Shown one piece after another: positions 16,434-63,983 of a stretch of DNA of 64,000 bases (position 1 is the first letter of the stretch; each line of letters opens with the position of its first letter). The stretch is from Candidatus Limnocylindria bacterium (GTDB lineage Bacteria; Chloroflexota; Limnocylindria; QHBO01). The notes under the pieces were generated by a model. The model saw nothing but the letters and a program-made list of their open reading frames with translations, had not been told where the DNA came from and did not search any database. The position numbers were made by a program, and so were the translations under genes. The stretch is taken from positions 22,231 to 86,230 of the forward strand of contig DATBIY010000006.1 of assembly GCA_036556695.1 (NCBI GenBank). Direction: 5' to 3'.

Positions 16434-16524
16434 CAATCGCCGCTCCCTTCTCCCGCGGGCTGGTGGCATCTGCCGCCGAAGACGACGAATGGCGCGCCTC
16501 GCGGGCGCGCCATGCAGCGATTCA

Positions 16525-16615
16525 AACCGACTCCCTTCGCTGGCATGACCCAGATCAGGTTCGAGGGTCTGCGGCTCACCGCACTCTCAGCGCACCCGGC
16601 GCTCCCCTGTCGCTC
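16525..16615 (-). promoter_or_regulatory. TPP (THI-box) riboswitch aptamer, followed by a GC-rich expression-platform hairpin (16491-16511)
   Basis: Minus-strand read AGGGGAGCGCCGGGUGCGCUGAGAGUGCGGUGAGCCGCAGACCCUCGAACCUGAUCUGGGUCAUGCCAGCGAAGGGAG contains all the conserved THI-box blocks (GGGG.GCC, CUGAGA, ACCCU.GAACCUGAUCUGG.UAAUGCCAGCG.AGGGA). A perfect hairpin GGCGCGCC-cgcgag-GGCGCGCC plus a U-rich tail lies between the aptamer and the SD/ATG of the TPK gene. Confidence 0.85.
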
Positions 16616-16667
16616 TTCGGTTGTCCATCGAGCCTACCACCTGCCGCTGCGGGCCGCCAATCGGAAA

Positions 16668-25565: not shown

Positions 25566-26600
25566 ATGATCCGGCTCGTGCTGGATGAGAGCTGGGAGCC
25601 GGCGGACGAGCGCGGTGCGCGCAAGCGCGACCGGCTGGCCCGGCTGCTGAGGGTGGCATCCATCCTCTACTCGCGGGGCTCGGGCGACAACGGCGTGGCG
25701 GTGACCGAGATCGCCGAGCTGACCGGCATGACCACCCGCACGGTGTACCGCGACATCAAGGCCCTCGAGGAAGAGCTGGGCATGCCGATCTTCGAGGCGG
25801 GGCGCGGCCGCCGCGGGATCGAGAAGAAGTACTTCCTGCCGCCGCTGCGCCTCTCCCTGCCCGAGGCGGTGGTGCTGTTCCTGGCGTCGCGGCTCATCGC
25901 GCGCTGGTCGGACGAATACGACCAGGCGGTCATCAGCGCCTTCACCAAGCTGGCGGACCTCCTGCCACAGCCCATCGCCCGCCACGTGGCGGCCACCATG
26001 CTGAGTGTCGGGCGGGCAGATCCCAACGAGCCGTTCACCCGCAACTTCGCGGTGGTCGCCCAGGGCTGGGCCGACGGGCGGGTCGTCGAGTTCGACTACG
26101 AGCCCGCATCTGGCGGAGCCGATGCGCGCCACGCGCGGGTGCGGCCGTACTTCCTGGAGCCCGATGCCGCCGGGCGCTCGGTCTACCTCATCGGCTTCGA
26201 TGAGACGGTCGATGCCATGCGCACCCTCAAGGTCGAGCGCATGCGCAACGCGATCCTGACCGCGGACCGCTACGAGATCCCCGAGGAGTTCGATCCGGAC
26301 GCCTGGCTGGCCCATTCGTGGGGCATCTGGTCGTCCGACACCACCGCGGTGGCGCAGGTCCGGCTGCGCTTCGACGCCTCGGTGGCGCCTCGCGTCCGGG
26401 AGTCGATCTGGCACCGCTCGCAGCAGATCACCGAGCTCCCGGATGGCGGCGTCGAGATGACGCTGACCGTGGCCGGCATCGTCGAGATCCGGCCCTGGAT
26501 CCTGGGATGGGGTGACGCGGTCGAGGTGCTGGAGCCGCCAGAGCTGCGCGAGGTGGTGGCCGGCGCGGTGCGACGAGCGGCAGCGCGCTACGAGACCTGA
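25566..26600 (+). CDS. HTH plus WYL-domain transcriptional regulator (PafBC/DriD-like)
   Basis: N-terminal DeoR-like HTH (RLARLLRVASILYS...VTEIAELTGMTTRTVYRDIKALEE...PIFEAGRGRRG) and C-terminal WYL/WCX-like region. Confidence 0.75.
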   Translation: MIRLVLDESWEPADERGARKRDRLARLLRVASILYSRGSGDNGVAVTEIAELTGMTTRTVYRDIKALEEELGMPIFEAGRGRRGIEKKYFLPPLRLSLPEAVVLFLASRLIARWSDEYDQAVISAFTKLADLLPQPIARHVAATMLSVGRADPNEPFTRNFAVVAQGWADGRVVEFDYEPASGGADARHARVRPYFLEPDAAGRSVYLIGFDETVDAMRTLKVERMRNAILTADRYEIPEEFDPDAWLAHSWGIWSSDTTAVAQVRLRFDASVAPRVRESIWHRSQQITELPDGGVEMTLTVAGIVEIRPWILGWGDAVEVLEPPELREVVAGAVRRAAARYET

Positions 26601-27235
26601 TGCCCGGCAGCCTCGAGATCGAGCTCAAGATGCGCGCCGATGACGAGGCCCCGCTGCGCCACCTGGCGGACGTTCCTCTGCTCGGCGGATGCCGCCTGGG
26701 CCCGGCGCGAGAGGTAGAGGAGACCGATCGCTACCTCGACACCGCTGACCGGCGGCTCTCGTCGCAGGGCTGGGCCTGCCGCCTGCGGAAGCGCAACGGC
26801 GTGACGCTCGTCTCGCTCAAGGGGCCACCGGAGCATGCGCCCGGCGAGGCCCTTCACCGCCGGCCCGAGCTCGAGGGTCCAGCCGATGGTGTGCCCGACC
26901 CTGCCGCGTGGCCGCCCTCGGCGGCGCGCAGCCGCCTGCTGGAGCTGACCGGCCATGAAGCGCTGCGCGAGCGGATCGTGCTGCGGCAGCGAAGAGTCGA
27001 GCGCGTGGTGGAGCCTGACCGGCGACTCGGAGTCCTGTCGCTGGACCGGGTCGAGGTGCTGCGCGACGGGACAGCGCGCGGCGATTTCGCGGTGGTCGAG
27101 CTGGAGCTGGCCGGCGGCGCAGACGAGCGTGAGCTGGCCCCGCTGGCCGAAGCCCTGTACGCCACGCCGGGCCTGCAGGCGGAGCCGCGGACGAAGCTGG
27201 AGCGTGCGCTGGAGCTGGCGCCGGACTGCGGATGA
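26600..27235 (+). CDS. CYTH-domain protein (triphosphate tunnel metalloenzyme, CyaB/thiamine-triphosphatase family)
   Basis: N-terminal ExExK signature (LEIELKMR) and about 200 aa of CYTH length. Start overlaps the WYL gene stop, and its own stop overlaps the next gene by 4 nt. Confidence 0.65.
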   Translation: MPGSLEIELKMRADDEAPLRHLADVPLLGGCRLGPAREVEETDRYLDTADRRLSSQGWACRLRKRNGVTLVSLKGPPEHAPGEALHRRPELEGPADGVPDPAAWPPSAARSRLLELTGHEALRERIVLRQRRVERVVEPDRRLGVLSLDRVEVLRDGTARGDFAVVELELAGGADERELAPLAEALYATPGLQAEPRTKLERALELAPDCG

Positions 27236-29466: not shown

Positions 29467-30153
29467 TCAGTCGGACAGCGGCAGGCGAAGGATCAGGGCC
29501 AGCGTCGGGCGAGCACGCGGCTCGGCCGGAATGATCGGCGCCCGCAGCCACGCCGCGCCGGCCGGCCCTTCGCGATATCGGGCAGACAGCTGCCGCGCCG
29601 ACAGCCCGTCGATGCCCAGGCTGGCCAGCGCCTCCGCGACCAGTGTCCCGTCGCCGGTGTAACCGCGGCCGGCGACCACTCGATCGCCGTCGGCCAGCAG
29701 CGCTCCCAGCCAGCGGCGCCGCACGCGGAACGAGCGACGGGTCACCGGCTCGCCGCCGGCCCACAGCAGGTCGCTGGCCACGTACGCCGGACGGCCGGCA
29801 TCTGCCTGGCCGTCCAGGCGGGCACGCAGCAGCGCGGGATCCGGCCGGCCGTCGTCGTCCAGCACCAGCAGCGTGCCGTCCAGCACCACCCCATCCTCGC
29901 CCAGCTGTCCCAGCAGCTCACTCAGCTCGGGAAAGGTGGCGGTGGCATCGGCCAGGCCGTCCGCCTGCAGGCGGAGCCGCCCTCGCTCGGCCAGGGCGAA
30001 GGCGCGGATGCCCGGCCACCACGGCTCGAAAAAGTAGCCGGCGTCGTCGAACGGGGCGTCGACCTGGGTGGCCTGCATCGGCACGATGCGCGACGGCAAG
30101 CGCGCCGGGCGGTCCTCCGGCGGAACGGGCAGCGGCAGCTGCTCCGGGGGCAC
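29467..30153 (-). CDS. LigD-ligase-domain homologue with degenerate catalytic motifs (predicted inactive pseudo-ligase), encoded immediately downstream of Ku
   Basis: Collinear with the LigD nucleotidyltransferase domain (PMQATQVD...FFEPWWPGIRAFA...DGTLLVLD...GIDGLSAR...AWLRAP). Motif I KxDG is WxPG here, motif IV K is R and motif V K is R. Confidence 0.65.
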   Translation of the reverse strand: MPPEQLPLPVPPEDRPARLPSRIVPMQATQVDAPFDDAGYFFEPWWPGIRAFALAERGRLRLQADGLADATATFPELSELLGQLGEDGVVLDGTLLVLDDDGRPDPALLRARLDGQADAGRPAYVASDLLWAGGEPVTRRSFRVRRRWLGALLADGDRVVAGRGYTGDGTLVAEALASLGIDGLSARQLSARYREGPAGAAWLRAPIIPAEPRARPTLALILRLPLSD

Positions 30154-30159
30154 GCTGCC

Positions 30160-31068
30160 TCAGGCGGTCTTGCGGCGTCGCGCCGCCGGCGCCTCCTCTT
30201 CCGAGTCCTTGGCCTTGCGGCGGCCGGCGGTCTTCTTGGCGGTTGACTTGGCCGGCTTCTCCTCCGCCTCCCCGCCGCTGCGGCGCGACTCGCGGGCCGC
30301 AGCCACGCTGGCCTCCAGGGCGGCCATCAGGTCGCCGATCTTGGTGGGCTCGGTCTTGCGCGCCGGCTCCGGCTTCTGTCCGGCGATCTTGGCCTCGATG
30401 ACCTGCATCAGGGCCTCGCGGTACTCGTCGTGCTCCTCGGATGGATCGAACTCGCCGCTCATCGAGGAGACCAACTGCTCCGCCATCTTGCGCTCGCTGG
30501 CCTTGATCTCGATCTCGTCCTCGGGCAGATTCAGCTCCTCGAGCGAGCGGATCTCGTCGGGCCAGTGGAGCGTGGTGAGAAGCATCGTCTTGCTGAACGG
30601 GTTCAGTGCGGCCAGCTGCTCCCGGTCCTTGAGGACGATCTTGCAGATGGCGGTCTTGCCGGTCTCGGCCAGCACTGACTTGAGCAGGTAGAAGGCCTTG
30701 CGGCCGACCTCATCGGGCTCCAGGTAGTAGGCCTGCTTGACGAAGCGGGCGCCCTTCTCCTCGGCCTGATCCTCGTCGACGAAGGCCTCGATTTCGATGG
30801 ACCGCACGGTCTTGAGCGGCACCGACTCGAGGTCCTCCTCGGTAATGACCACGTACTTGCCCTTCGACCACTCGTAGCCGCGCACAGTCTCCGAGCGCGG
30901 GATGACCTCATCGTCCTCGGGGCAATAGATCTTCATCTGGATCCGGCTCAGATCCTTCTTGTGCAGCAGGTTGAAGCCGATGCCACCCGATTCGGTGGCC
31001 AGGTACAGCTTCACCGGGATCGTCACCAGCCCGAACTGGATGGCCCCCCGCCACATGGATCGCGCCAT
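30160..31068 (-). CDS. ku: Ku protein (non-homologous end joining)
   Basis: MARSMWRGAIQFGLVTIPVKLY... is the canonical bacterial Ku N-terminus, followed by a Lys/Ala-rich C-terminal tail. Confidence 0.9.
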   Translation of the reverse strand: MARSMWRGAIQFGLVTIPVKLYLATESGGIGFNLLHKKDLSRIQMKIYCPEDDEVIPRSETVRGYEWSKGKYVVITEEDLESVPLKTVRSIEIEAFVDEDQAEEKGARFVKQAYYLEPDEVGRKAFYLLKSVLAETGKTAICKIVLKDREQLAALNPFSKTMLLTTLHWPDEIRSLEELNLPEDEIEIKASERKMAEQLVSSMSGEFDPSEEHDEYREALMQVIEAKIAGQKPEPARKTEPTKIGDLMAALEASVAAARESRRSGGEAEEKPAKSTAKKTAGRRKAKDSEEEAPAARRRKTA

Positions 31069-32913: not shown

Positions 32914-33531
32914 CTAGCTCCCCTCACCCTCGCGCGCCTGCTGCAGCCAGCGCTCGGCGGTGGCGCTGTCCAGCACATCGGCCAGCAGCTCGTCGGGGAG
33001 CTCGTCGTCGGTGACCAGGATGATGTGCGAGCGCGCGCGCTGGAAGGCCACCGCGGCGGCAGTGCGACCCAGCTCGGGGTGCGCGCCGCAGGCGATGGTC
33101 ACCTCGGTCATCGGCATGAATCGGTCGCTGGCGTTCAGCACCCCGTCCACCGGTCGACTGCCCTGCGGGACGTGGATGGTGCCGGTGATGCGAAACGGTG
33201 GGATGCCCACCTGCGCTCGTACCGCGCGCTTCGGGATGCGCATCTCTGTCCGGGCCGCGCCTTCGGCTGCCTCGGCAGCGATCACCAGCAGCACCTTGTC
33301 GAGGTCGACCAGCACCTGCATGGCCGATACCGTGGCCGTCGCATCGGCATACTCGCTGACGGTGGCCTCCGCTACCGCCAGGTGGCTGGAAGACCCTGAC
33401 GTTTGGTTGACGATATCGGCCACCCGGCTGAAGCGCGTGGCCGTCTTGCCCGAGACGCGGTACGCGTCGGTATAGACGTCGATGGGCACCGCCTCGGGTG
33501 ACGAGGCGGCGAAGGGATCGAAGCCGCTCAT
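32914..33531 (-). CDS. Hypothetical protein
   Basis: 205-aa ORF with coding periodicity, convergent with the preceding gene. No recognisable motif. Confidence 0.4.
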   Translation of the reverse strand: MSGFDPFAASSPEAVPIDVYTDAYRVSGKTATRFSRVADIVNQTSGSSSHLAVAEATVSEYADATATVSAMQVLVDLDKVLLVIAAEAAEGAARTEMRIPKRAVRAQVGIPPFRITGTIHVPQGSRPVDGVLNASDRFMPMTEVTIACGAHPELGRTAAAVAFQRARSHIILVTDDELPDELLADVLDSATAERWLQQAREGEGS

Positions 33532-33551: not shown

Positions 33552-35279
33552 TCAGCTGCTCTCCGGCCCCTCGCCGGTGGCCGCGATGCGCTCCGTCTCT
33601 CCGCCGCTTCCGCGCGCCAGCAGGATGCGACCGGTGGCCTGCTCTCTGAACAGCGCCTCCACCGTGCCCAGCGTGTCGATGTCGGCCGGCGTCTTGTCGT
33701 CGCGGATGCGCACGATGCGCGGGAAGCGCATGGCGAAGCCCGACTTGTGGCGGTTCGAGCGCAAGATCCGGTCGAAGGCGATCTCGACCACCACCTCGGG
33801 GTGCACCGTGCGGTAGCGGCCGAAGTCGCGCAGCGTGATCGACGTGAAGCGCTCGGTCATGGTCGCGATCTCGGCATCGGTCAGGCCGGTGTAGGCCTTG
33901 CCGATGGTCAGCAGCGGCGCATCGGCCTCCTCCGAGGCGCGGACGGAGAAGGTGTAGTCCGACAGGACGTTGCGCCGCTTGCCGTGGCCCCATTCCACGC
34001 CCACCACCACGCAGTCCAGGGTGGCCAGCGCCTTCTTCAGCTTCAGCCAACCAAGGCCGCGGCGGCCGGGCTGGTAGACCGAGTCCGGGTCCTTGACCAT
34101 CAGGCCCTCGTTGTGTCGCTCGCGCGCGTCGGCGAAGTGGCGCTCCACCTCATCCGCGCTGCGGGCCGTCGCCAGGTTCGAGAGCAGGAAGCGCTCCCCG
34201 CTGCGGCCGGGCAGGTCCAGCCCCTCCAGCGCGGCGCGGCGCTGGCGCAGCGGCGTCTCCAGCAGGTCGTTGCCGTCGAGGTGCAGCAGGTCGAAGGCGA
34301 CCAGCACCACCGGCACCTGTTCCAGCAGCTCCGGCCCCGGATTCACGCGGCCCAGGCGGGTCTGCAGGCTGGCGAAGTCCATGACCGATCCCGCCCGATA
34401 CGGCACCAGCTCGCCATCGATCACCAGCCGATGGTCCAGCGTGGCAGCGGCCGATGCCACCTCCGGGAAGGAGATGGTGATGTCGTTCAGGTCGCGGCTG
34501 AACAGCCGTGCCCGGCCGTTGGCCAGATGCAGCTGTGCGCGGATGCCGTCGTACTTGTCCTCGATCCAGGCCTCGTCGCCCACCCGCCGCATCACCTCGT
34601 CCGCGTCGGCGACCGGCGTGGCCAGCATGAAGCGGATCGGCCGTCCCAGGTGCAGGGCGGCCGTGGCCAGCGCGTCATTCCGCGCCAGGACCGCCGCCTC
34701 GCCGGGCTCGCCCACCAGCATGAGGGCACGGCGCACGTCGTCGACGGGCCGCTCGAAGGCGGCAGCGATTGCCTCCTCCAGCAGCCCCTCGCGCAGGCCG
34801 ATGCGCAGCTCGCGGGCGGCGATTCGGCCGATGTAGCGCGCCTCGCCGGGCGTGGCCCGCGCGTAGAGGCGAGCCATCTCGGTCACCCGCGCCTCAGCCG
34901 ACTGCGCCTCGCTCATGCCGCGGAACGCGCGGTCGACGTCGCTGACGCTCAGTGGCGGCGGCGTGGGCGAGCGGCTCGTCAGCAGGTCGGCGGCGGCATC
35001 CCCAAGGTCCGAGTGGCGCAGGTAGGCCGAGTTCAGCGCCTCCGCAGCGGCTCCTGAGGCGGCGGCCAGGGCCTGGCTCTGCTGCACCCAGCCCAGCCCC
35101 AGGCGGTCCTGCGCCCCGGGCAGCGGCCGTCCCGCGAAGAAGGTTGCCGCGGCCGGTAGGACGGCAGCGGGAAGCGCTCGCAGGTAGGCCGCCAGCAAGT
35201 CGCGCTTCTTCAGCTTGGAGGTGGTGGCCGCCACGTCATCGGCAACGCGGGCGAACTCGGCGAACGTGGCGGCAGCCAT
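33552..35279 (-). CDS. lig: ATP-dependent DNA ligase (LigB/LigC type), catalytically intact
   Basis: Motif I EDKYDGIRAQLH with the catalytic Lys, motif III (LVIDGELV), motif IV (EGLMVK) and motif V (WLKLKK). Start is probably the internal Met (MAAATFAEF...), giving a 35-nt divergent intergenic region with the next gene. Confidence 0.85.
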   Translation of the reverse strand: MAAATFAEFARVADDVAATTSKLKKRDLLAAYLRALPAAVLPAAATFFAGRPLPGAQDRLGLGWVQQSQALAAASGAAAEALNSAYLRHSDLGDAAADLLTSRSPTPPPLSVSDVDRAFRGMSEAQSAEARVTEMARLYARATPGEARYIGRIAARELRIGLREGLLEEAIAAAFERPVDDVRRALMLVGEPGEAAVLARNDALATAALHLGRPIRFMLATPVADADEVMRRVGDEAWIEDKYDGIRAQLHLANGRARLFSRDLNDITISFPEVASAAATLDHRLVIDGELVPYRAGSVMDFASLQTRLGRVNPGPELLEQVPVVLVAFDLLHLDGNDLLETPLRQRRAALEGLDLPGRSGERFLLSNLATARSADEVERHFADARERHNEGLMVKDPDSVYQPGRRGLGWLKLKKALATLDCVVVGVEWGHGKRRNVLSDYTFSVRASEEADAPLLTIGKAYTGLTDAEIATMTERFTSITLRDFGRYRTVHPEVVVEIAFDRILRSNRHKSGFAMRFPRIVRIRDDKTPADIDTLGTVEALFREQATGRILLARGSGGETERIAATGEGPESS

Positions 35280-35314
35280 GGGATCGAGTCTAGCGGCGTG
35301 TACGATCCGGGCCG

Positions 35315-37648
35315 ATGCAGACCGTGGGCGTCCTCCACGCGGATCCACCGGCCCTGACGCCCGAGCGTGCCGCCGAGCTGGCGCTCGAGCTGTACGGCGT
35401 CAGCGCCAGCACGCGGATGCTGGTCAGCGAGCGGGACCAGAACTTCCGGCTGGATGCAGACGACGGCAGCCGCTGGGTTCTCAAGGTCTCGAACGCGGCC
35501 GAGGACCCGGCCGTGGTCGAGATGGAGGTGGCTGCCGTGGAGCACGTGGCCGCCATGGACCCCACGCTCCCGGTGCCACGTGCGCGCCCCGCCCGCTCCG
35601 GGGAGCTGGTGGCGGTGGCGCGGGAGGGCGGCGCCACGCACCGCGTGCGGCTGCTGCCCTTCTTCGAGGGTCGTTCCGCAGCGCCCGGGGAGCTGGACGC
35701 CATGGCCATTCGGGCGATTGGCCATGCGACGGCCCGCGTTAGCCACGCGCTGCGCGGCTTCTTCCACCCGGCCGCCGGCCGGGTGATGCCGTGGGACCAG
35801 AAGCAGATCCTGCCCGAGCTGGCGCAGCACGCCGACCGCATCACCGACCCACGACGCAGGGCGCTGCTCGACCGCTTCCTGCGGCGCTTCGAGGACCGCG
35901 TGGCGCCCGCGCTGCCCCAGCTGCGGTCGCAGGTCATCCACAACGACGTGACCCTGGACAACCTGCTGCTCGACGACGCGGACCGGATCAGCGGGATCAT
36001 CGACTTCGGCGACATGGTGCACACCGCCACCGTGCTCGACGTGCCCGCCACGCTGCAGTCGCTGGTGCGGCACCGTGACGACCTGTTCGAGGTCTCCGGC
36101 TGGTTCCTCCCCGGGTTCACCTCGATCGTGCCGCTCGAAGCCGATGCGGCGGAGCTGCTGGCCGACCTGATGGCCGGCCGCATGGTGCAGACCATCCTCA
36201 TCTCCGCCTGGCGGACGGAGCAGTTCCCGGACAACGCCTACATCACCGGCTGGCAGGAGCCGGCCTGGACGCTGCTCGAGGGCATGGAGCGCACCGGCAT
36301 GGATGCCGCCGCGCGGCGGCTGGCCCAGATGGCCATGGCCCCCGCCCTGCGTGCCAGCGCGGCTCCTCCACCTGACGCCGAGCTGGCTGCGCGGCGAGCT
36401 GGCGTGCTGGGGCCAGCACTCGAGCGGCTGAGCTACGCGCGGCCGCTGCACCTGGTCCGCGGCCAGGGTGCCTGGATGTTCGACGCCGAGGGGCGCGCCT
36501 ACCTGGATGCCTACAACAACGTGCCGGTGGTCGGCCACGCCCACCGACGGGTGGCCGATGCCATCGCCCGCCAGGCGGCGACCCTCAACACCAACACCCG
36601 TTACCTGCACGCCGCCATCGTCGAGCTGGCGCAGCGGATCGTCGCCTCGATGCCCGACGGCTTGGACACGGTGATGTTCGTGAACTCGGGCAGCGAGGCG
36701 AACGACCTGGCCTGGCGGCTGGCGACCACCGCGAGCGGCGGCGACGCGGGCCTGGTCGCGGACTGGGCCTACCACGGCGTGACCGCGGCCATCGCCGATT
36801 TCTCCCCGTCCGAGTGGCCGCGCGGCGCGCGGCCGGCGGGCGTCGAGACCTTTCCTGCGCCAGACACCTTCCGCGGGCCCTACGCCCAGGCCGCGGACCC
36901 GGCCGCGGTGGCGCGCGACGAGATGGCGGCCGCCCTGGCGCGGCTGGCTGAGCGTGGCCGGCGGCCGGCGGCGCTGTTCATTGATGCGTTCTGGACCTCG
37001 TCCGGCATCTTCGCACCGGCGGCCGCAACCGTGGCCGAGCTGATCCGCGAGGCGCGACGGGCCGGCGCGCTGTACGTGGCCGACGAGGTGCAGTCCGGCC
37101 ACGGCCGCAGCGGCGACGGGCTGTGGACCTTTCCGGCCTGGGGTGTGACGCCGGACGTGGTCACCATGGGCAAGCCGATGGGCAACGGGCATCCGGTGGC
37201 GGCGGTGGTCACCCGCACCGACATCGCCGAACGTCTGGCGGCGACGACGACCTTCTTCAGCACGTTCGGCGGCAACCCGGTGGCCTGCGTGGCGGCGCTT
37301 TCAGTGCTTGACGTGGTCGAGGACGAGGACCTCGTCGCCCACGCCGCAAGCGTGGGGGCGACGCTGCGCGAGGGCCTGGCAGCGCTGGCCGGGCGCCATC
37401 CGCAGATCGGCGACGTGCGCGGCCGTGGGCTGATCGTGGGCGTCGAGCTGGTGGAGCGGGACGGTGCGCCCGCCGGCGAGCTGGCGCGAGCGGTACGCGA
37501 CCGGATGCGCGAGGAAGGGGTGCTCATCGGCACCACCCGGCGCGAGGGCAACGTGCTGAAGATCCGGCCGCCGCTGGTGATCAGCCCGGACGACGCCGAC
37601 CTCATCGTGACGACCCTGGATCGCGTGCTGGCCGCGCTCGCCGGCTGA
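35315..37648 (+). CDS. Bifunctional-type fusion: N-terminal APH-like phosphotransferase (hydroxylysine-kinase-like) and C-terminal class-III PLP aminotransferase fold (phospho-lyase/aminotransferase-like)
   Basis: Kinase Brenner motif HNDVTLDNLLL and DFGDM. Aminotransferase class III motifs (SGSEANDLAWRLA, DEVQSGHGRSG, PLP Lys in TMGKPMGNGHP). Confidence 0.75.
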   Translation: MQTVGVLHADPPALTPERAAELALELYGVSASTRMLVSERDQNFRLDADDGSRWVLKVSNAAEDPAVVEMEVAAVEHVAAMDPTLPVPRARPARSGELVAVAREGGATHRVRLLPFFEGRSAAPGELDAMAIRAIGHATARVSHALRGFFHPAAGRVMPWDQKQILPELAQHADRITDPRRRALLDRFLRRFEDRVAPALPQLRSQVIHNDVTLDNLLLDDADRISGIIDFGDMVHTATVLDVPATLQSLVRHRDDLFEVSGWFLPGFTSIVPLEADAAELLADLMAGRMVQTILISAWRTEQFPDNAYITGWQEPAWTLLEGMERTGMDAAARRLAQMAMAPALRASAAPPPDAELAARRAGVLGPALERLSYARPLHLVRGQGAWMFDAEGRAYLDAYNNVPVVGHAHRRVADAIARQAATLNTNTRYLHAAIVELAQRIVASMPDGLDTVMFVNSGSEANDLAWRLATTASGGDAGLVADWAYHGVTAAIADFSPSEWPRGARPAGVETFPAPDTFRGPYAQAADPAAVARDEMAAALARLAERGRRPAALFIDAFWTSSGIFAPAAATVAELIREARRAGALYVADEVQSGHGRSGDGLWTFPAWGVTPDVVTMGKPMGNGHPVAAVVTRTDIAERLAATTTFFSTFGGNPVACVAALSVLDVVEDEDLVAHAASVGATLREGLAALAGRHPQIGDVRGRGLIVGVELVERDGAPAGELARAVRDRMREEGVLIGTTRREGNVLKIRPPLVISPDDADLIVTTLDRVLAALAG

Positions 37649-38364: not shown

Positions 38365-38441
38365 GCCCCCATCGTCTAGAGGCCTAGGACGCCACCCTTT
38401 CAAGGTGGAGATCACCGGTTCGAATCCGGTTGGGGGCACCA
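38365..38441 (+). tRNA. tRNA-Glu (anticodon TTC), CCA encoded
   Basis: GCCCCCA acceptor stem paired with TGGGGGC. Anticodon stem CCACC/GGTGG around loop CTTTCAA, T-arm GGTTCGAATCC, discriminator A then CCA. Confidence 0.85.
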
Positions 38442-54564: not shown

Positions 54565-54639
54565 TGGAGCCGAAGGTGGGATTCGAACCCACGACCGACG
54601 GTTTACGAAACCGTTGCTCTACCCCTGAGCTACTTCGGC
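54565..54639 (-). tRNA. tRNA-Thr (anticodon CGT), CCA encoded
   Basis: Minus-strand read GCCGAAGTAGCTCAGGGGTAGAGCAACGGTTTCGTAAACCGTCGGTCGTGGGTTCGAATCCCACCTTCGGCTCCA gives a cloverleaf with anticodon loop TTCGTAA. Confidence 0.85.
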
Positions 54640-55283: not shown

Positions 55284-56240
55284 TCAGTCCACCAGGTGCT
55301 CGGCGGCGAAGGCGCGCATGGCCTCGATGTCCGGCTCCAGGATGTAGCCGCGCCCGTCCCCCGCGTCCCCGGCAAAGGTGATGAAGCCGCCGTCCGGGTT
55401 CAGCACCTGCGTGATGACCTCGGCGTCCTGCGCTCGCTGGGCGAGCTCCACGTAGGTCGGCATGTCCTCCAGCGGCAGGTCGGTCTCGAACGAGTCCAGG
55501 CTGTCCAGCAGCGCCGGAATGTCGATCTGGTTATCCGGTGAGATGAGTCGCCGCACCAGTTGCTGGATGACCTCCTGCTGGCGCGCGGCACGCTGGAAGT
55601 CGTTGTCGACCCGCGTCCGCACGTAGCCCTGCGCCGTCCTCCCGTCCAGCAGCTGGCGTCCCGCCGGGATGTCCAGGTCAAGGTGGGCATCGGCCAGCGG
55701 GGCGTGGGGCCGAACGCGCACGCCACCGACCGCGTCGACCATGGTGATCAGGTCGCCCATGTCGATCTGCACGTAGCCGTCGATCTCGATCTGCAGCAGT
55801 TCCTCCAACGCCCCGCGCAGCTCCTCCACCCCCTGCGTTGAATAGATGGCATTGATCTTCTGCGTCCAGGTCGTACCGTCGGGCATCGGGATGTCGACCG
55901 TGTCGCGGGGGACGCTGACCAGCGTCATCTCCGACTGGTCGGCGTTCATGCTGGCGATCATGATCGTGTCGCTGTTGATGCCGGCTCCTCGCGCCCGGCG
56001 GGCGTCGCTGCTGTCCAGGCCAAGCACCAGGACGGTGAACCGATTGCTCAGCAGCTCCTGGTTGAGCGTCGGCGAAGGTGACGGCTGGCTGGCCGATGGC
56101 GAGGCGCTCGCCGCCGGCGCCCGCTGGTTCAGCAGCACGAACCCCAGGCCGGCTGCGACAACGGCCAGCAGGACGACGCCGCCGACCAATGGCCACGGCG
56201 CACGGCGAGAGGCAGCGGCTGGTTCGGGCGTGTAGGTCAT
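55284..56240 (-). CDS. LytR-CpsA-Psr (LCP) family cell-envelope phosphotransferase
   Basis: TM anchor followed by an LCP core (VLVLGLDSSD...SDTIMIASMN...VSVPRDT). Confidence 0.8.
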   Translation of the reverse strand: MTYTPEPAAASRRAPWPLVGGVVLLAVVAAGLGFVLLNQRAPAASASPSASQPSPSPTLNQELLSNRFTVLVLGLDSSDARRARGAGINSDTIMIASMNADQSEMTLVSVPRDTVDIPMPDGTTWTQKINAIYSTQGVEELRGALEELLQIEIDGYVQIDMGDLITMVDAVGGVRVRPHAPLADAHLDLDIPAGRQLLDGRTAQGYVRTRVDNDFQRAARQQEVIQQLVRRLISPDNQIDIPALLDSLDSFETDLPLEDMPTYVELAQRAQDAEVITQVLNPDGGFITFAGDAGDGRGYILEPDIEAMRAFAAEHLVD

Positions 56241-57130
56241 CGGGACGCGCTGTCTGCGTCTGGCGTGCCAACCTCGGCCGCTCGGCGTTCAGGCGGCATC
56301 CAGCCATGGATCAGCTCGTCGTGGTAGCGAGGCATGCCGCCGGCCCTGGCAATGTCGCGGGGAATGGGAGCCATCGGTGCCTTGCTCTTCGCCGCCAGGA
56401 CGTAGTAGGCGCAGACGTCGGTCAGCGGGCAGAGCCCGCAGATCGGACGCGGCGCGCGGCAGGTGTCGCGGCCATGCCGGATGAGCTCCACGTGGAAGGG
56501 GTACATCTCGTCGGGCTGGAGCACCTCCTCCAGCAGGTCGTGGGCGCGCTCCAGCGGTGTGCGCGGCGGCAGCATGCCCAGGCGGCTGGCCACGCGGTGA
56601 ACGTGGGTGTCGACCGGCACCGCCGGTCGCCCGAAGCCGAACAGCAGGATGATCGAAGCGGTCTTGCGGCCGATGCCGGTCAGCGACACCAGCCAGGCCC
56701 GCGCCTCCTCGAGCGGCTGCGTCCCCAGGAAGCCCAGGTCCCAGGTGCCATTCGTCGCGGCGTGCACCTCGGCCAGGATGTGCTGGATGCGCTTCGACTT
56801 GGTCGGCGCCAGGCCGCCGGGGCGGATGACGTCCTCCAGCTCGTCCGTCGGCGCGGCCAGCACCTCCTCCCAGGTGGCGTAGCGGGCGCGGAGCGCGCTG
56901 AAGGCTCGGAACGAATTCGTGTCGGCAGTGTTCTGCGACAAGATGGTCAGCACCAGCTCGCTCACCGCATCGAGCCGCGGGCCCGCCCAGGTCGGGTGCT
57001 CATAGCGCTCCCCCAGCCGATCGAGCACCACGCCGGCCAGCGCGCGGCGCTTCCGACGGTCTGCGGCCCTCTTCTGCGGGCTTGGACCTCGCCGTCCGCC
57101 CCGCTTCTTCCCCTTGGTGGCGGCCGCCAT
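56237..57130 (-). CDS. nth: Endonuclease III family DNA glycosylase (HhH-GPD with a 4Fe-4S cluster)
   Basis: HhH-GPD motif (LVSLTGIGRKTASIILLFG...VDTHVHRV) and FCL Cys cluster Cx6Cx2Cx5C (CRAPRPICGLCPLTDVC). Basic N-terminal extension. Confidence 0.85.
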   Translation of the reverse strand: MAAATKGKKRGGRRGPSPQKRAADRRKRRALAGVVLDRLGERYEHPTWAGPRLDAVSELVLTILSQNTADTNSFRAFSALRARYATWEEVLAAPTDELEDVIRPGGLAPTKSKRIQHILAEVHAATNGTWDLGFLGTQPLEEARAWLVSLTGIGRKTASIILLFGFGRPAVPVDTHVHRVASRLGMLPPRTPLERAHDLLEEVLQPDEMYPFHVELIRHGRDTCRAPRPICGLCPLTDVCAYYVLAAKSKAPMAPIPRDIARAGGMPRYHDELIHGWMPPERRAAEVGTPDADSASR

Positions 57131-58311
57131 CAGCCGGAGCGCTCCGCCAGCCCGATCCCCAGCTCCAGGGTCCGCGCAACCCGCTCCGCGGCGTTGGCCA
57201 GCAGCCGCTCCGTGTCCTGCATGGCCTCATCCAGCGCCATGGGCCTGTCGCCGATGGGCTGCACCACCGCGAATGTGCCCGACGCATCGAGCGCGGCGGC
57301 TCCCGGGCCCAGCGCGCCACACAGCAGGATCACCGGCGAGTTCCGGCTGCGCGCCAGGCGGGCCACGCCCATGGCCGCCTTGCCGGACAGCGTCTGCTCG
57401 TCGGCGCGTCCCTCGCCGGTGATCACCAGGTCGGCCGATTCGAGCGCGTCGGCCAGGCCCACCAGCTCGGCCACGACCTCTACCCCGGGACGGACCTGCG
57501 CGCTGGTGAAGCCCAGCAACCCGGCCGTCGTGCCCCCGGCCGCGCCAGCGCCGGGGATGTCGGCCACGAAGCGGCCCTTGGCCGTCTCGATGGCCCCGCC
57601 CCACGCCGCCAGCGCGGCTTCCAGCTCCTCGACGGCTGCCGGGTCGGCGCCCTTCTGCGGCCCGTAGGTGGCTGCCGCACCGCTGGGCCCACACAGCAGG
57701 TTGGTCACGTCCGAGGCGATCGTCAGCCTCACTTCGGCCAGCCGTGGATCCAGTCCATCGGCTTCGACCTTCGCCAGCCCGGCGAGTGCCGCGCCACCCG
57801 GCTCCAATACCCGTCCCGCCGAATCGAGCAGCCGCAAACCCAGCGCCGCCAGCAGGCCGCTGCCACCGTCGGTTGTGGCGCTGCCGCCCAAGCCCAGCGT
57901 GATCTCCGTGGCACCGGCGTCCAAAGCGGCGCGCAGCAGATCCCCCGTCCCGCGGGTCGAGGCACGGCGCGCTGCGTCCGGGGTGCGCTCCTGGTGCGCC
58001 AGGCGGGACAGCCCGGAGGCCGCCGCCATCTCGATGAACGCGGTGCCGCCGCCCAGCTCCAGCCAGTCAGCCTCGATCGGACGGCCCAGCGGGTCGATGG
58101 TGCTCACCGTCCGCCGCTGCGCCCGCTCGCCGAGGGCCGCCTCCAGGGAGGCCAGCGTGCCCTCGCCGCCATCGGCCATGGGAGTCAGCCGGATCTCGTC
58201 CTGGGACCGGGCGCGTGACCACCCGGCGGCGATCGCCCGCGCCACGCCGACGGAGTCCAGCGACCCGCCGAACGAGTCGGGGGCGATGACCAGGCGGAGG
58301 GGGTCAGTCAC
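57130..58311 (-). CDS. glxK: Glycerate kinase
   Basis: GlxK/GarK family layout (LVIAPDSFGGSL...MADGGEGT...VITGEGR). Confidence 0.85.
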   Translation of the reverse strand: MTDPLRLVIAPDSFGGSLDSVGVARAIAAGWSRARSQDEIRLTPMADGGEGTLASLEAALGERAQRRTVSTIDPLGRPIEADWLELGGGTAFIEMAAASGLSRLAHQERTPDAARRASTRGTGDLLRAALDAGATEITLGLGGSATTDGGSGLLAALGLRLLDSAGRVLEPGGAALAGLAKVEADGLDPRLAEVRLTIASDVTNLLCGPSGAAATYGPQKGADPAAVEELEAALAAWGGAIETAKGRFVADIPGAGAAGGTTAGLLGFTSAQVRPGVEVVAELVGLADALESADLVITGEGRADEQTLSGKAAMGVARLARSRNSPVILLCGALGPGAAALDASGTFAVVQPIGDRPMALDEAMQDTERLLANAAERVARTLELGIGLAERSG

Positions 58312-58364
58312 CCGTCGATGATAGTGGTGCTCGGCGGCTTGGCCGTGAGGTCCGTATCGGCGAG

Positions 58365-60316
<1,952 letters not shown>

Positions 60317-60317
<1 letters not shown>

Positions 60318-61705
60318 CAGCCCGGCCGCTCCCCGGCGGCGCGCATCTCCTTCCAGCGCGTCACCAGGTACGGCTTCAGCTCCTCGAACTCGCGCGCCTG
60401 GGAGTCGATGACGCGCTCCGCCTGGTCCGTGGTCATCTCCAGCGTCTCGCCGATGAAGCCGGCTGTGCGAGCGAAGTACAGCGGCGTCAGCGCGGCCAAC
60501 AGCTGCTCACGATCGGCTCCGGGGCGGTGGAAGGCGACCATGGTGTCGTACAGGCAGCGGATCCACAGCTCGGCCGGGAAGTGGAAGGCAGGCGGCTCTG
60601 GCGGGATCTCCAGGGTCATGACCCGCTCCAGCTGCTCCGGGGCCAGCATCCCGTCCCACACCTGGCGCTGCGCCAGCCGGGCGGTGTCGAAGTTGTCGAT
60701 CAGCTTGGCGTGGTTGACGTCGATCATCTCCGGGGCGATGACCCGCTCGAATCCGTACTCCGGGATGGGGTGCGAGCCGCGGACCCGGAGCCATCGGTCC
60801 TCGTAGACCGCGGCCAGCCGGAAGAGCGTGCCGACCACCTGCCGAAACATCGGCCCAAGGTCGGAGGCTGGATCCTTGGCGTCGTGGATCTTTGCGCCCA
60901 GGCGTGCCTGGCAGACGGCGAAGCCCTCGTTGATGGCCGAGTGCGTCATCCAGATGTCGATCCCGAAGCGCGCCGTGAGCTCGTCGAAGGTGTCCAGCTC
61001 CAGGTAGCGCTCCACCAGGTCGCCCGATACCGCGAACTCACCACCGATGGGCTGCCGAATCCGCGCCCCGTACAGCGCCCGGGTCAGCGGGTAGGCGATG
61101 TTGTTGGTGATGGTGCCGTCGTACTTGAAGCGCGCGTACATGGGCGCCACGAAGTCGTAGCCGCCCTTGAGGATCGGCCCGGCCAGCAGCTCGATCCACT
61201 CCGGCGCGATGCTGCGCAGGTCGGAGTCGACCATCACGAAGGCCTTGACCTTCAGCTCGCGCGCCACCTCGAACAGGGCGCGCACCGCGGTGCCCTTCCC
61301 GCTGATGCCCTGGTAGGTGAAGCTGATGCGCTGCAGCTTGTGGCGCGGGCTGACCAGGATGATCTTCTCGATGTAGTCCGGGCTCTCGGTGCTGACCGCC
61401 ACCCGGGGCGTGTCATCCGGTGAGCCGCCGTCGCTGTTGACCATGATCGGCTTGAGATCCGGGAAGTACTGGACCATGCCTGCGGTGGCAGCGCGCACGA
61501 CGTAACCGATGGTCTCCGCGTTGCCGAAGCTGGGGATGCCGACCATCAGGTCGGCGCTTCCCACGCGCCGGACCTCGGCCAGCCCCTTGGCGTCGAGCGC
61601 CGATTCCGGCGGAGCTGGCGAGGTGGTCGTCACCGGCTTGCCTCCTGGAGCATCGAGCGTGGGGTTCGGGCTCGGGAAGGAAGCGTAGCACCGCCAGTGC
61701 CCCAC
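60317..61705 (-). CDS. GT-A-fold glycosyltransferase, paralogous partner of the upstream GpgS-like gene
   Basis: VGIPSFGNAETIG...MVNSDGGSPDDT...FVMVDSDLR indicates a nucleotide-sugar transferase fold. Stop/start overlap with the upstream gene. Confidence 0.6.
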
Positions 61706-61733: not shown

Positions 61734-62459
61734 TCAGTCGTGGGACCGGGATTGCTCCGCTGGCTCGGACTCGTCCTCGATGTGCACTCGCCGCTTCGGC
61801 CGCACGCCGAAGAGCCGCTGCACGGGCGAGGGGCCGCGCACCTCGGCGGTGGAGATCTGCAGCCAGTCCTCGCACACCTCGCCGGGGCGGTAGCGCGAGT
61901 TCACGTGCTTGGCGATGTAGTGCTCGAAGCCGGCGGCCCGCCAGCCGAGCAGCCAGTTGGCGAGGGGCAGCCGCACCGCCGGGCTGATGCGCACCCGCAC
62001 GTCCTCGGCCACCACCGAGGTCAGCAGCCGGCGTCGTTCCAGGTACGGGATGTCGTGCAGCGGCTGGCCGTCCAGCTCCACCAGGTCGACCGCCACGAAG
62101 GCGCGGCGCGGCTCGTTCTCGATGGGATCGGGCAGCTCCTCGGCCAGCCCTTCCTCGGCGATCGCATCGGCCAGGTGGCGCGCGGCGCTCCCCTCGCCGA
62201 CGAACGGCATGTTGGTCCACACGCCGTCGATGAGCGCCTCGTCGGCATCGAGCGCCGGCTCGAGCACCTCGGCCGCCTCGCGCAGCTCATCGGCCACCGG
62301 TTCGCCGGTCGCGTCGGTGACCGTCACCCGGCCGTCGCGCAGGCGGGCCATCAGGCGCTCGCCCTTCCAGGCAGGCTCGAACATCCACTCGGTGCTTTGC
62401 ACGACGGCGTCGGATGGCGTGGCGCGCTGCGGCAGGTCGGTCGCGTCGGGGGCTGTCAT
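61734..62459 (-). CDS. Second LigD-ligase-domain homologue with a degenerate motif I (predicted pseudo-ligase paralogue)
   Basis: WMFEPAWKGERL in place of EPKWDGxR, motif III-like EALIDGVW, motif IV IAKHVNSRYRPG retained, motif V WLQIS with Lys lost. Same length class (241 aa) as the Ku-adjacent paralogue. Confidence 0.6.
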   Translation of the reverse strand: MTAPDATDLPQRATPSDAVVQSTEWMFEPAWKGERLMARLRDGRVTVTDATGEPVADELREAAEVLEPALDADEALIDGVWTNMPFVGEGSAARHLADAIAEEGLAEELPDPIENEPRRAFVAVDLVELDGQPLHDIPYLERRRLLTSVVAEDVRVRISPAVRLPLANWLLGWRAAGFEHYIAKHVNSRYRPGEVCEDWLQISTAEVRGPSPVQRLFGVRPKRRVHIEDESEPAEQSRSHD

Positions 62460-62663: not shown

Positions 62664-63983
62664 TCAGCCAGGGCCGTAGAGGTCCAGCTGCCCCTCTTCG
62701 ACCTCGGCGCCGACCTCGGTGCGGATCTGCTCCCAGGCATCCAGGTCCCACTCACCCACGAAGGTGATGGCCGTCCCCTCCTTGCCGGCGCGTCCGGTGC
62801 GGCCGATGCGGTGGACGTAGGTGTCGGCGTCCTCGGGGATGTCGTAGGACAGGACGTAGGGCAGGTCGGTGATGTCCAGCCCGCGGCTGGCGACGTTGGT
62901 GGCCACCAGAAACTGGATCCGCCCAGCCTTGAAGTCGGCCAGGGTGCGGGTCCGCTCGCGCTGGCTCATGCCGCCGTGCAGGGCCGCCACGTTCTTGCCG
63001 CGGCGCTTCAGGGTCAGGGCCAGGCGGTCGACGCCGATCTGAGTGTGACGGAAGACCAGGAGCCGATCGAACCCGAACTGCTCGGTCAGCTCGACCAGGG
63101 CGCGCACCTTGTCCTGCTCGGCCACGAAGTAGACCAGCTGGCGCACGGTCTCGACCGTCTTGGTCTCGGGCTTGACCACGATGTGCTCGGCGTTGCGGTC
63201 CATGAACCGATCGCAGATGCGCAGGATGGCGTAGGGCATCGTCGCGCTGAACAGGGCCGTCTGGCGGTTGCGCGGGCAGCGGGCCAGGATCGTCTCCACG
63301 TCGACGATGAAGCCCATGTCCAGCATGCGGTCGGCCTCGTCCAGGATCACGGTGTTCACCCGGTCGAGGCGCAGCTCACCGCGGCGGATCAGGTCCAGCA
63401 CCCGTCCCGGGGTGCCGACCACCACCGGCGTCCCCTTCTTCAGTGCGGTGATCTGGCGATCCATGCTCGAGCCGCCGTAAATGGCCACTGCGCCGACGTT
63501 GCGGAAGACGCCGATGCGCCGGATCTCCTCGGTGACCTGCACGCACAGCTCGCGCGTCGGGGTCAGGATCAGCGCCTGCACGTGGCGGGCAGACGGGTCT
63601 ACCTTCTCGACGATGGGAATGCCGAAGGCCGCGGTCTTCCCGGTACCGGTCTGCGCCTGGCCGATGAGGTCCTCGCCCGCGCGCAGCGGTCCGATGGCGC
63701 GCGCCTGCACCTCGGTGGGCTGGGTAAAGCCCATTTTTTCGATGGCGCGGGCGATGGTGGGCGGCAGCTCGATGTCGCCGAAGCGGTAGCTCTTCTGGGC
63801 CGCCAGCACGGCGGCGAGCAGTGGCGATTCCTCGGGGGATTCCTCGGGCTGCGTGGCGGTGGCGGCGACGGCCGCCTGGCCGTTGGTGGCCGGCGCGCGG
63901 CGCCGGGTTCGAGAGCGGCGCGGCGCCGGCCGGGCGTCGATTTCTGGCAAATGCATCCTCGTTTCTGCCGCGGATCCTAGCAC
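62664..63983 (-). CDS. DEAD-box ATP-dependent RNA helicase
   Basis: Q-motif (F...TQPTEVQ), motif I AQTGTGKT, motif II DEAD, SAT, HRIGRTGR. Arg-rich N-terminal extension. Confidence 0.9.
   Translation of the reverse strand: MLGSAAETRMHLPEIDARPAPRRSRTRRRAPATNGQAAVAATATQPEESPEESPLLAAVLAAQKSYRFGDIELPPTIARAIEKMGFTQPTEVQARAIGPLRAGEDLIGQAQTGTGKTAAFGIPIVEKVDPSARHVQALILTPTRELCVQVTEEIRRIGVFRNVGAVAIYGGSSMDRQITALKKGTPVVVGTPGRVLDLIRRGELRLDRVNTVILDEADRMLDMGFIVDVETILARCPRNRQTALFSATMPYAILRICDRFMDRNAEHIVVKPETKTVETVRQLVYFVAEQDKVRALVELTEQFGFDRLLVFRHTQIGVDRLALTLKRRGKNVAALHGGMSQRERTRTLADFKAGRIQFLVATNVASRGLDITDLPYVLSYDIPEDADTYVHRIGRTGRAGKEGTAITFVGEWDLDAWEQIRTEVGAEVEEGQLDLYGPG

Follow-up and report, generated by a model that had tools for sequence, protein, structure and literature searches.

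What is a ligase-like gene doing beside ku once its catalytic residues have been replaced? Non-homologous end joining (NHEJ) in bacteria is taught as a minimal machine of Ku and LigD. In a 64,000-nucleotide stretch from a Candidatus Limnocylindria bacterium (assembly GCA_036556695.1, contig DATBIY010000006.1, positions 22,231 to 86,230; hereafter the window), the slot beside ku that is usually held by ligD is taken by a gene of 228 codons, here named famA (29467-30153, reverse strand, GTG start). The famA protein is a lysine-free homologue of the nucleotidyltransferase (NTase) subdomain of the LigD ligase, and it does not contain the OB domain. The reading that we favour, with a probability of roughly 0.55, is that famA is a non-catalytic accessory or adaptor subunit of Ku.

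famA resembles the NTase subdomain of LigD and has lost the catalytic residues

The Pfam scan of famA returned the NTase domain PF01068 (30.1 bits; cutoff 26.2) and no other match, and its best NCBIfam models are of the LigD type (PRK09632, 93 bits; TIGR02779, 75.6 bits). The curated cutoff of TIGR02779 (NHEJ_ligase_lig) is 227.75 bits, and both famA and famB, a second lysine-less gene of the window (64.7 bits), score below it. The alignment to this model runs from position 2 to position 182 of 302 for famA and ends at position 183 for famB. The OB domain PF04679 was matched in neither protein by the Pfam scan. The famA chain ends about 22 residues after motif V, and motif VI is therefore absent together with the OB domain. 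The block-by-block collinearity with the LigD ligase domain, proposed in a first-pass annotation made from the sequence, thus holds for the NTase half and fails for the OB half. That annotation noted neither the loss of the OB domain nor the two terminal peptides and the wider lysine-less family that are described below.

The famA protein can be aligned to the ligase domain (LigDom) of Mycobacterium tuberculosis LigD (residues ~452-759; structures 1vs0 and 6nhz) with an E value of about 4e-15. In motif I, F42-E-P-W-W-P-G-I-R50 (30004-30030, reverse strand), W45 takes the place of K481, the lysine that is adenylated, and P47 that of D483. In motif III, the 'LDGT' of famA lies on 'LDGE', which places T94 at the glutamate position. 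Motif IV, D182-G-L-S-A-R187 (29593-29610, reverse strand), aligns 'DGLSAR' with 'EGVIAK', with R187 at the lysine, and motif V, W202-L-R-A-P206 (29536-29550, reverse strand), aligns 'WLR' with 'WVK', with R204 at the lysine, so that both lysines are gone. These positions agree with the first-pass annotation, which had described the gene downstream of ku as a LigD ligase homologue with a dead motif I (FEPWWPGIR) and with arginines in place of the motif IV and motif V lysines.

There is no lysine among the 228 residues of famA; the median in 120 homologues is also zero, and none of the lysines that do occur is at a conserved position. A catalytic lysine at a shifted position, which had been named as an outcome that would overturn the assignment, is therefore excluded. 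Judged from its sequence, famA would be incapable of self-adenylylation through a lysine, and neither nick sealing nor adenylylation is predicted for it. We considered a split ligase, in which the OB domain is provided by a separate protein, and rejected it: famA is without the nucleophile, and the other motifs are also gone. The protein is acidic, with an isoelectric point (pI) of 5.0 and a net charge of -5.

The structure of famA was predicted by AlphaFold2 with a mean predicted local distance difference test (pLDDT) score of 38 from close famA homologues only, and of 92.4 (pTM 0.84) from a mixed alignment that included LigD relatives. The latter model can be divided into a core of residues ~21-210 and flexible tails at both ends. 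A Foldseek search with the model retrieved ligase NTase domains, including 6nhx and 1vs0 of M. tuberculosis LigD, with TMq values of 0.65-0.75 and E values down to 4e-14. By the model, famA is predicted to have the NTase fold of an ATP-dependent ligase. famA shares with LigDom the best sequence and profile match, the NTase fold, the position adjacent to ku, and the subdomain that bears the published Ku-contact residues; it differs in its lack of an adenylatable lysine, the degenerate motifs I, III, IV, and V, the missing OB domain and motif VI, the lysine-free composition, and the additional terminal peptides.

A protein from a Candidatus Limnocylindria metagenome-assembled genome (MAG) that is 100% identical to famA (P0001) is annotated merely as 'hypothetical protein', as is the rule for these families at NCBI. 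The JGI pipeline labels the famA and famB families 'bifunctional non-homologous end joining protein LigD' or 'ATP-dependent DNA ligase' (P0003, P0011, and others). On its predicted properties, famA should not carry the name of LigD ligase, because the catalytic residues, the OB domain, and the score against the curated cutoff all fail to support it.

The replacement residues of famA are conserved and the gene is under purifying selection

Almost everything known here about famA derives from MAGs of uncultured organisms in a single class. The EPWWPG sequence is present in 79 of 79 GTDB loci and in 119 of the 120 closest homologue clusters, with EPSWPG as the single exception, and it is also kept in those 50%-identity representatives of the famA clade that cover motif I, to 44% identity. 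The pattern W-x-R-x-P of motif V is conserved across the clade. E43, G48, and R50 of motif I, as well as D92-G93 of motif III, are kept in the close family, and R50 is replaced by proline in distant members (WWPGxP).

Searches of species-representative genomes gave 270 famA matches, and the open reading frame (ORF) is uninterrupted in 78 of the 79 that are near full length. The third-position G+C of famA (0.88) and famB (0.93) is typical for real genes of this genome; the window has a G+C content of 70.9%. When the window is compared with its ten nearest relatives, famA has ratios of non-synonymous to synonymous substitutions (dN/dS) of 0.10-0.18, and ku, taken from those same loci, has ratios of 0.14-0.24; across all pairs, the median is 0.29 for famA and 0.30 for ku. 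These are pairwise NG86 values obtained by simple counting at saturated synonymous sites, and they lean upwards because dS is probably underestimated in a codon-biased genome. famA is a pseudoenzyme under purifying selection and not a decaying gene.

The alternative that famA is a recent ligD remnant or pseudogene, or an active ligase with a displaced lysine, would account for a short ORF in the usual position of ligD beside ku, and for a C-terminal peptide that is similar to the end of a LigD polymerase (POL) domain, as would be left by an internal deletion in a LIG-POL gene. The data refute this alternative, and we consider it extremely improbable: the number of matches, the intact ORFs, and the dN/dS values are joined by replacement residues that are invariant to 44% identity, by a family without a conserved lysine, and by the loss of motifs III, IV, and V and of the OB domain. 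The claim of the first-pass annotation that the ku-adjacent gene is selected and not a decayed pseudogene is borne out by dN/dS values near those of ku, far from the ratio of about 1 by which it was to be refuted, and by the invariant WWP.

ku and famA form a conserved unit

The ku gene (30160-31068, reverse strand) encodes a protein of 302 residues with a score of 277.7 bits against TIGR02772 (cutoff 150) and a match to PF02735. The Ku protein can be divided into a beta-barrel core, a minimal C-terminal helix IGDLMAALEASV, and a basic tail of lysines and arginines. Its alignment to M. tuberculosis Ku (8v53) has an E value of 3e-50 and takes in the C-terminal helix, where IGDLMAALEASV is opposite VSDLLAKLEASV. 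The features that identify a bacterial Ku, namely the core, the minimal C-terminal region, and a score above the TIGR02772 cutoff, are all found in the window protein.

The TGA codon of ku is separated from the GTG codon of famA by 6 nt (...ACC GCC TGA GGC AGC GTG CCC...). A Shine-Dalgarno-like GAGG (30158-30161, reverse strand; tGAGGcagcGTG) overlaps the stop codon of ku and is located 4 nt ahead of the GTG codon of famA; we read it as a probable sign of translational coupling of the two genes. In the window, ku and famA are in the same frame, with the TGA and two codons between them (30151-30162, reverse strand), and readthrough would yield a Ku-famA fusion. Such a fusion was rejected as a general feature: the ORFs of two distant loci (L081 and L093) overlap out of frame, and the in-frame arrangement of the window is therefore not general.

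The ku gene is located directly upstream of famA and on the same strand in 77 of the 77 loci that could be evaluated among 80 related loci from species-representative genomes; the remaining three are cut by a contig end. The order of a LigB-type ligase, DUF6812, OsmC, a response regulator, ku, famA, Wzy/TPR, CYTH, and WYL genes is common to the 80 loci, and because this wider synteny is shared, the adjacency of ku within them could on its own reflect vertical inheritance. However, ku also directly precedes famA in the three distant loci L081, L082, and L093 (41-48% identity), the flanks of which are unrelated to those of the window, with one second set of flanking genes shared by L082 and L093. 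Their spacing differs: 32 nt separate the ORFs in L082, and an overlap of 4 nt is seen in L081 and of 1 nt in L093. The pair is therefore a conserved unit, and the operonic linkage of famA with ku is independent of the wider neighbourhood.

Both ends of famA carry conserved peptides

The terminal peptides of famA are conserved, and the linkers that adjoin them are variable. The candidate binding peptides are QLPLPV and RPTLALILRLPL. The N-terminal peptide, Q5-L-P-L-P-V10 (30124-30141, reverse strand), is a short linear motif of the type QLxLP. The QL.LP pattern is present in 75 of 75 full-length famA homologues, with L6 and L8 invariant to 41% identity, and the sixth residue is valine, leucine, alanine, or isoleucine in most of these sequences. 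The clamp-binding motif of Escherichia coli Hda is the N-terminal peptide 6-QLSLPL-11 (PMC5397184). The 5-QLPLPV-10 of famA is found at the same distance from the N-terminus and is likewise in a flexible region, with a likeness that extends over five to six residues and a sixth position that is not always hydrophobic. Ku or some other partner is an equally plausible target of the peptide.

The C-terminal peptide, R215-P-T-L-A-L-I-L-R-L-P-L226 (29476-29511, reverse strand), forms a tail behind the NTase domain and was modelled as a helix of low confidence. Its pattern, RPxLxLLxRLPL, is kept in 120 of 120 famA homologues and is absent from all 82 relatives that contain the motif I lysine, of which only two match a loose version of the N-terminal pattern. 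The two terminal peptides of famA have the appearance of short linear motifs that mediate interactions.

The C-terminal peptide of famA and of famD, a related lysine-less family described below, reads RPxLALLQRLPL and is similar to the ends of LigD POL domains, GDLFAPVL[ST]LxQxLP, with examples such as ...APVLTLVQELP and ...GDLFAPVLTLVQELPG; the likeness was seen in the C-termini of the L086 LigD and of P0270, P0317, and P0331. Over 10-12 residues, it suggests that famA may derive from a LIG-POL gene by internal deletion. The peptide would be either a relic of the deleted POL domain or an interaction peptide common to both.

Proposed function of famA with Ku

The C-terminal arm of M. tuberculosis Ku binds LigD through the POL and LIG domains, and the contacts of the arm with the LIG domain are formed by D522, R567, T572, K579, and L580; the substitution D522R abolishes binding (bioRxiv 10.64898/2025.12.12.693941). 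According to the 1vs0/6nhz alignment, all five contact residues map into the NTase subdomain kept by famA. D522 corresponds to E86 of famA, which is invariant among close homologues. From the M. tuberculosis data and the kept C-terminal helix of the window Ku, we infer that famA is likely to bind Ku.

In the proposed mechanism, famA would be a LigD-type NTase subdomain that has been kept, after the loss of catalysis and of the OB domain, as a partner of Ku encoded on the same transcript. The acidic dead NTase domain (pI ~5) would dock onto the conserved C-terminal arm of Ku, and the flexible QLxLP and RPxLxLLxRLPL peptides would tether other factors to the Ku-bound DNA ends. A separately encoded LigB-type ligase and the beta sliding clamp are the candidate partners. 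famA would then be a third, non-enzymatic component of end joining, and the scaffolding or regulatory role suggested in the first-pass annotation may apply to it. The eukaryotic NHEJ accessory factors XRCC4, XLF, and PAXX are non-enzymatic and act with Ku and a ligase through protein contacts and short terminal Ku-binding peptides. They have no homology to famA, have a different fold, and are not derived from a ligase; the analogy is one of function only and is hypothetical.

The same data would also suit a decoy or a brake, in which famA sits on the arm of Ku where LigD docks, restricts end joining or sets its timing, and recruits nothing. The location in the ku operon, the kept subdomain with its Ku-contact residues, and the lack of catalytic capacity would all be as expected, and famD, encoded directly upstream of an intact ligD, could compete with that enzyme. 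However, it is not obvious why a pure competitor would require two strictly conserved terminal peptides, and an inhibitor produced stoichiometrically from the operon of its own target would be unusual. Furthermore, neither the window nor the 10 kb around famA in any of the 80 loci was found to contain a PE or POL domain, and so no LigD with which famA could compete is seen there. We regard the decoy as unlikely.

The NTase domain of a ligase contacts the nick, and famA might accordingly be a sensor, the dead domain of which recognises a 5'-phosphate end or a nick and helps Ku to cap, bridge, or mark breaks. The fold is predicted to be intact, and E43, G48, R50, and D92-G93 are kept in the close family. 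On the other hand, famA is acidic and is without the OB domain and the DNA-binding domain (DBD), the source of most DNA contacts, and R50 becomes proline in the distant members. In M. tuberculosis LigD, the positioning of DNA is assigned to the OB domain (PMC8656161). The sensor appears to us even less probable than the decoy.

Several observations weigh against an adaptor that connects Ku to other factors. The sixth residue of the N-terminal peptide is glutamate, threonine, glycine, or arginine in about 12 of the 75 sequences, and the clamp-binding reading is therefore weaker. The distant branch of famA has not conserved E86 or the equivalents of K579 and L580 (R147 and W148 in famA). The LigB-type ligase is near ku-famA only within Limnocylindria and is absent from that position in L081 and L082, so its proximity may be plain synteny. 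The search for a true LigD spanned the window and the 10 kb flanks of famA in the 80 loci. Finally, in the single long locus in which famC, another related family, was found (L090), no NHEJ gene lies next to it.

The LigB-type ATP-dependent DNA ligase of the window (33552-35348, reverse strand) consists of PF04675, PF01068, and PF04679 domains (DBD, NTase, and OB), contains an intact EDKYDGIR motif, and is a candidate for the sealing enzyme. In most of the 80 related loci, it is found upstream of ku at a distance of 3-6 kb. The first-pass annotation had recognised it as an intact KYDG ligase and had placed its end at 35279, which is an internal ATG of the longer ORF. The start is ambiguous between the GTG at 35348 and the ATG at 35279, and the longer ORF overlaps a divergent gene for a fusion of an APH kinase and a class-III aminotransferase (35315-37648, forward strand). 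The gene directly downstream of the ligase encodes a DUF6812 protein (32914-33531) and is conserved.

Lysine-less relatives of famA

The motif I lysine is missing from about 20 LigD-like proteins outside famA among the 50%-identity representatives related to it. Many of these lysine-less relatives carry an N-terminal QLxLxL (QLSLKL, QLTLQL) together with a C-terminal RPxLxLLQRLPL. The N-terminus of the Dehalococcoidia protein P0267, MPQLSLF, contains the consensus of the clamp-binding pentapeptide.

Profile searches delineated two families. The members of famD have about 335-380 residues, NTase and OB domains, the motif I sequence FEPSW[DE]GLR, and both terminal peptides, N-terminal QL[ST]LEL and C-terminal RPVLALLQRLPL. 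A full-length ligD of PE-LIG-POL organisation starts 2-5 nt downstream of famD in 7 of the 7 evaluable loci (L086:1585-5476, L092:1837-5762, and L094-L098). famD is similar to famA in the loss of the motif I lysine and in the two peptides; unlike famA, it retains an OB domain, and its partner is ligD instead of ku, in a gene pair of pseudo-ligase and ligase.

The members of famC (L090:6001-6768; P0448-P0509, including P0487 from Limnocylindrales; and P0523 from Gaiellales) have about 250-290 residues, the NTase domain only, FEP[SMV]WGG in motif I, and an N-terminal QLSLRL. They share the loss of the motif I lysine and the N-terminal peptide with famA; unlike famA, they were not matched by the C-terminal pattern, and the single long locus shows famC by itself. 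There, it sits between DeoC and GBBH-like genes, which also flank the famD-ligD loci. This arrangement hints that ligD may have been lost at the L090 locus.

It is conceivable, although we think it doubtful, that famA, famD, and famC are together widespread non-catalytic adaptors that link Ku-bound ends to the beta clamp, to a separate ligase, or to both, as a functional counterpart of the XRCC4/XLF type, with sealing by the LigB-type enzyme in Limnocylindria. End joining in bacteria would then not in every case consist of the two proteins Ku and LigD.

Implications for bacterial end joining

A literature search returned no description of lysine-less or pseudo-LigD paralogues, of Ku-associated pseudo-ligases, of NHEJ in Chloroflexi or Limnocylindria, or of DNA repair in Limnocylindria. 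If the adaptor reading is true, bacterial NHEJ would have a third component in famA, with Ku, and in the relatives encoded together with LigD, and famA would offer a handle on how Ku recruits or regulates its partners. As a pseudoenzyme offshoot of LigD, famA may be the sign of an accessory layer of bacterial end joining that has gone unrecognised. A broad census of NHEJ classed genomes by the presence of domains, and catalytic residues were not considered (PMC7719229). Domain-based censuses of this kind would score ku-famA genomes as 'Ku + LIG', even though famA is predicted to be unable to ligate.

famB belongs to a separate lysine-less lineage

The famB gene (61734-62459, reverse strand) encodes an NTase-only protein of 241 residues (PF01068, 39.3 bits) with FEPAWKGER in motif I and DWLQIS in motif V. 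It keeps the lysine of motif IV (YIAKH), and the catalytic residues of motifs III and V are not kept. The EPAWKGER sequence and the loss of the motif V lysine had been noted in the first-pass annotation and are both present. The position of the motif I lysine is occupied by alanine, cysteine, tyrosine, serine, histidine, or glycine in 118 of 120 homologues, and motif I could not be located by pattern in the other two. The lysine in motif I of the window famB is not conserved, because the homologues have arginine, lysine, serine, asparagine, or threonine at this position, which is that of the aspartate.

The description of famB as degenerate did not hold up: 49 columns are invariant over 25 sequences, among them DGxWT in motif III, an insert unique to the family, MPFVGxGSAARHLA...LPDPIENE, and YVAKHxNSRY. 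For famB, pairs more diverged than those used for famA gave dN/dS values of 0.37-0.51.

Both the window and three long contigs (L083, L084, and L085) show famB behind the gene for a DEAD-box RNA helicase similar to CshA, RhlE, and DbpA (62664-63983 in the window, reverse strand) and ahead of a pair of genes similar to glucosyl-3-phosphoglycerate synthase and a glycerate kinase gene. It is not adjacent to ku in any of the loci examined, and is 31 kb away from ku in the window. The proposal of two Ku-associated pseudo-ligases therefore does not extend to famB. The two proteins have in common the loss of the motif I lysine; unlike famA, famB has no terminal peptides, keeps the motif IV lysine, contains the unique insert, and is partnered by a helicase.

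The sequence identity of famB to famA is 27%, and a rough neighbour-joining tree, which has short deep branches and carries no bootstrap or other support values, places famB apart from famA, famC, and famD. The low identity and the separate clades therefore indicate that famA and famB are old independent lineages and not a recent pair. A single lysine loss for all of the families was considered and set aside in view of the position of famB in this tree, and the lysine may have been lost more than once. famB is a separate, older lysine-less lineage that is tied to the RNA helicase and not associated with Ku.

The genes downstream of famB (57130-61705, reverse strand) encode a 462-residue GpgS-like protein without a Pfam match, a fusion of Usp and glucosyl-3-phosphoglycerate synthase, and a glycerate kinase. 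The group looks like a cluster for glucosylglycerate, a compatible solute. It is followed by a gene for an HhH-GPD glycosylase (56237-57130).

Other features of the window

Beyond famA, on the opposite strand, the window encodes an HTH-WYL-WCX regulator and a CYTH-domain protein (25566-27235, forward strand), and the pair is conserved in most of the loci L001-L080. The WYL protein was matched by the PADLOC model 'Cas3c' with an E value of 8e-73 and by CRISPR-associated WYL models. A role of the WYL/CYTH pair in the response to DNA damage is possible. None of famA, famB, and Ku was matched to a defence system by PADLOC.

In the long-read MAG contigs of L081 and L085, several genes are called in pieces, such as the urease of L081 and the DEAD-box helicase of L085; assembly frameshifts are the probable cause, and the gene calls of these contigs call for caution. 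The RNA features of the window are a TPP riboswitch (16515-16618, reverse strand, 67.2 bits), a tRNA-Glu(TTC) (38365-38441, forward strand), and a tRNA-Thr(CGT) (54565-54639, reverse strand).

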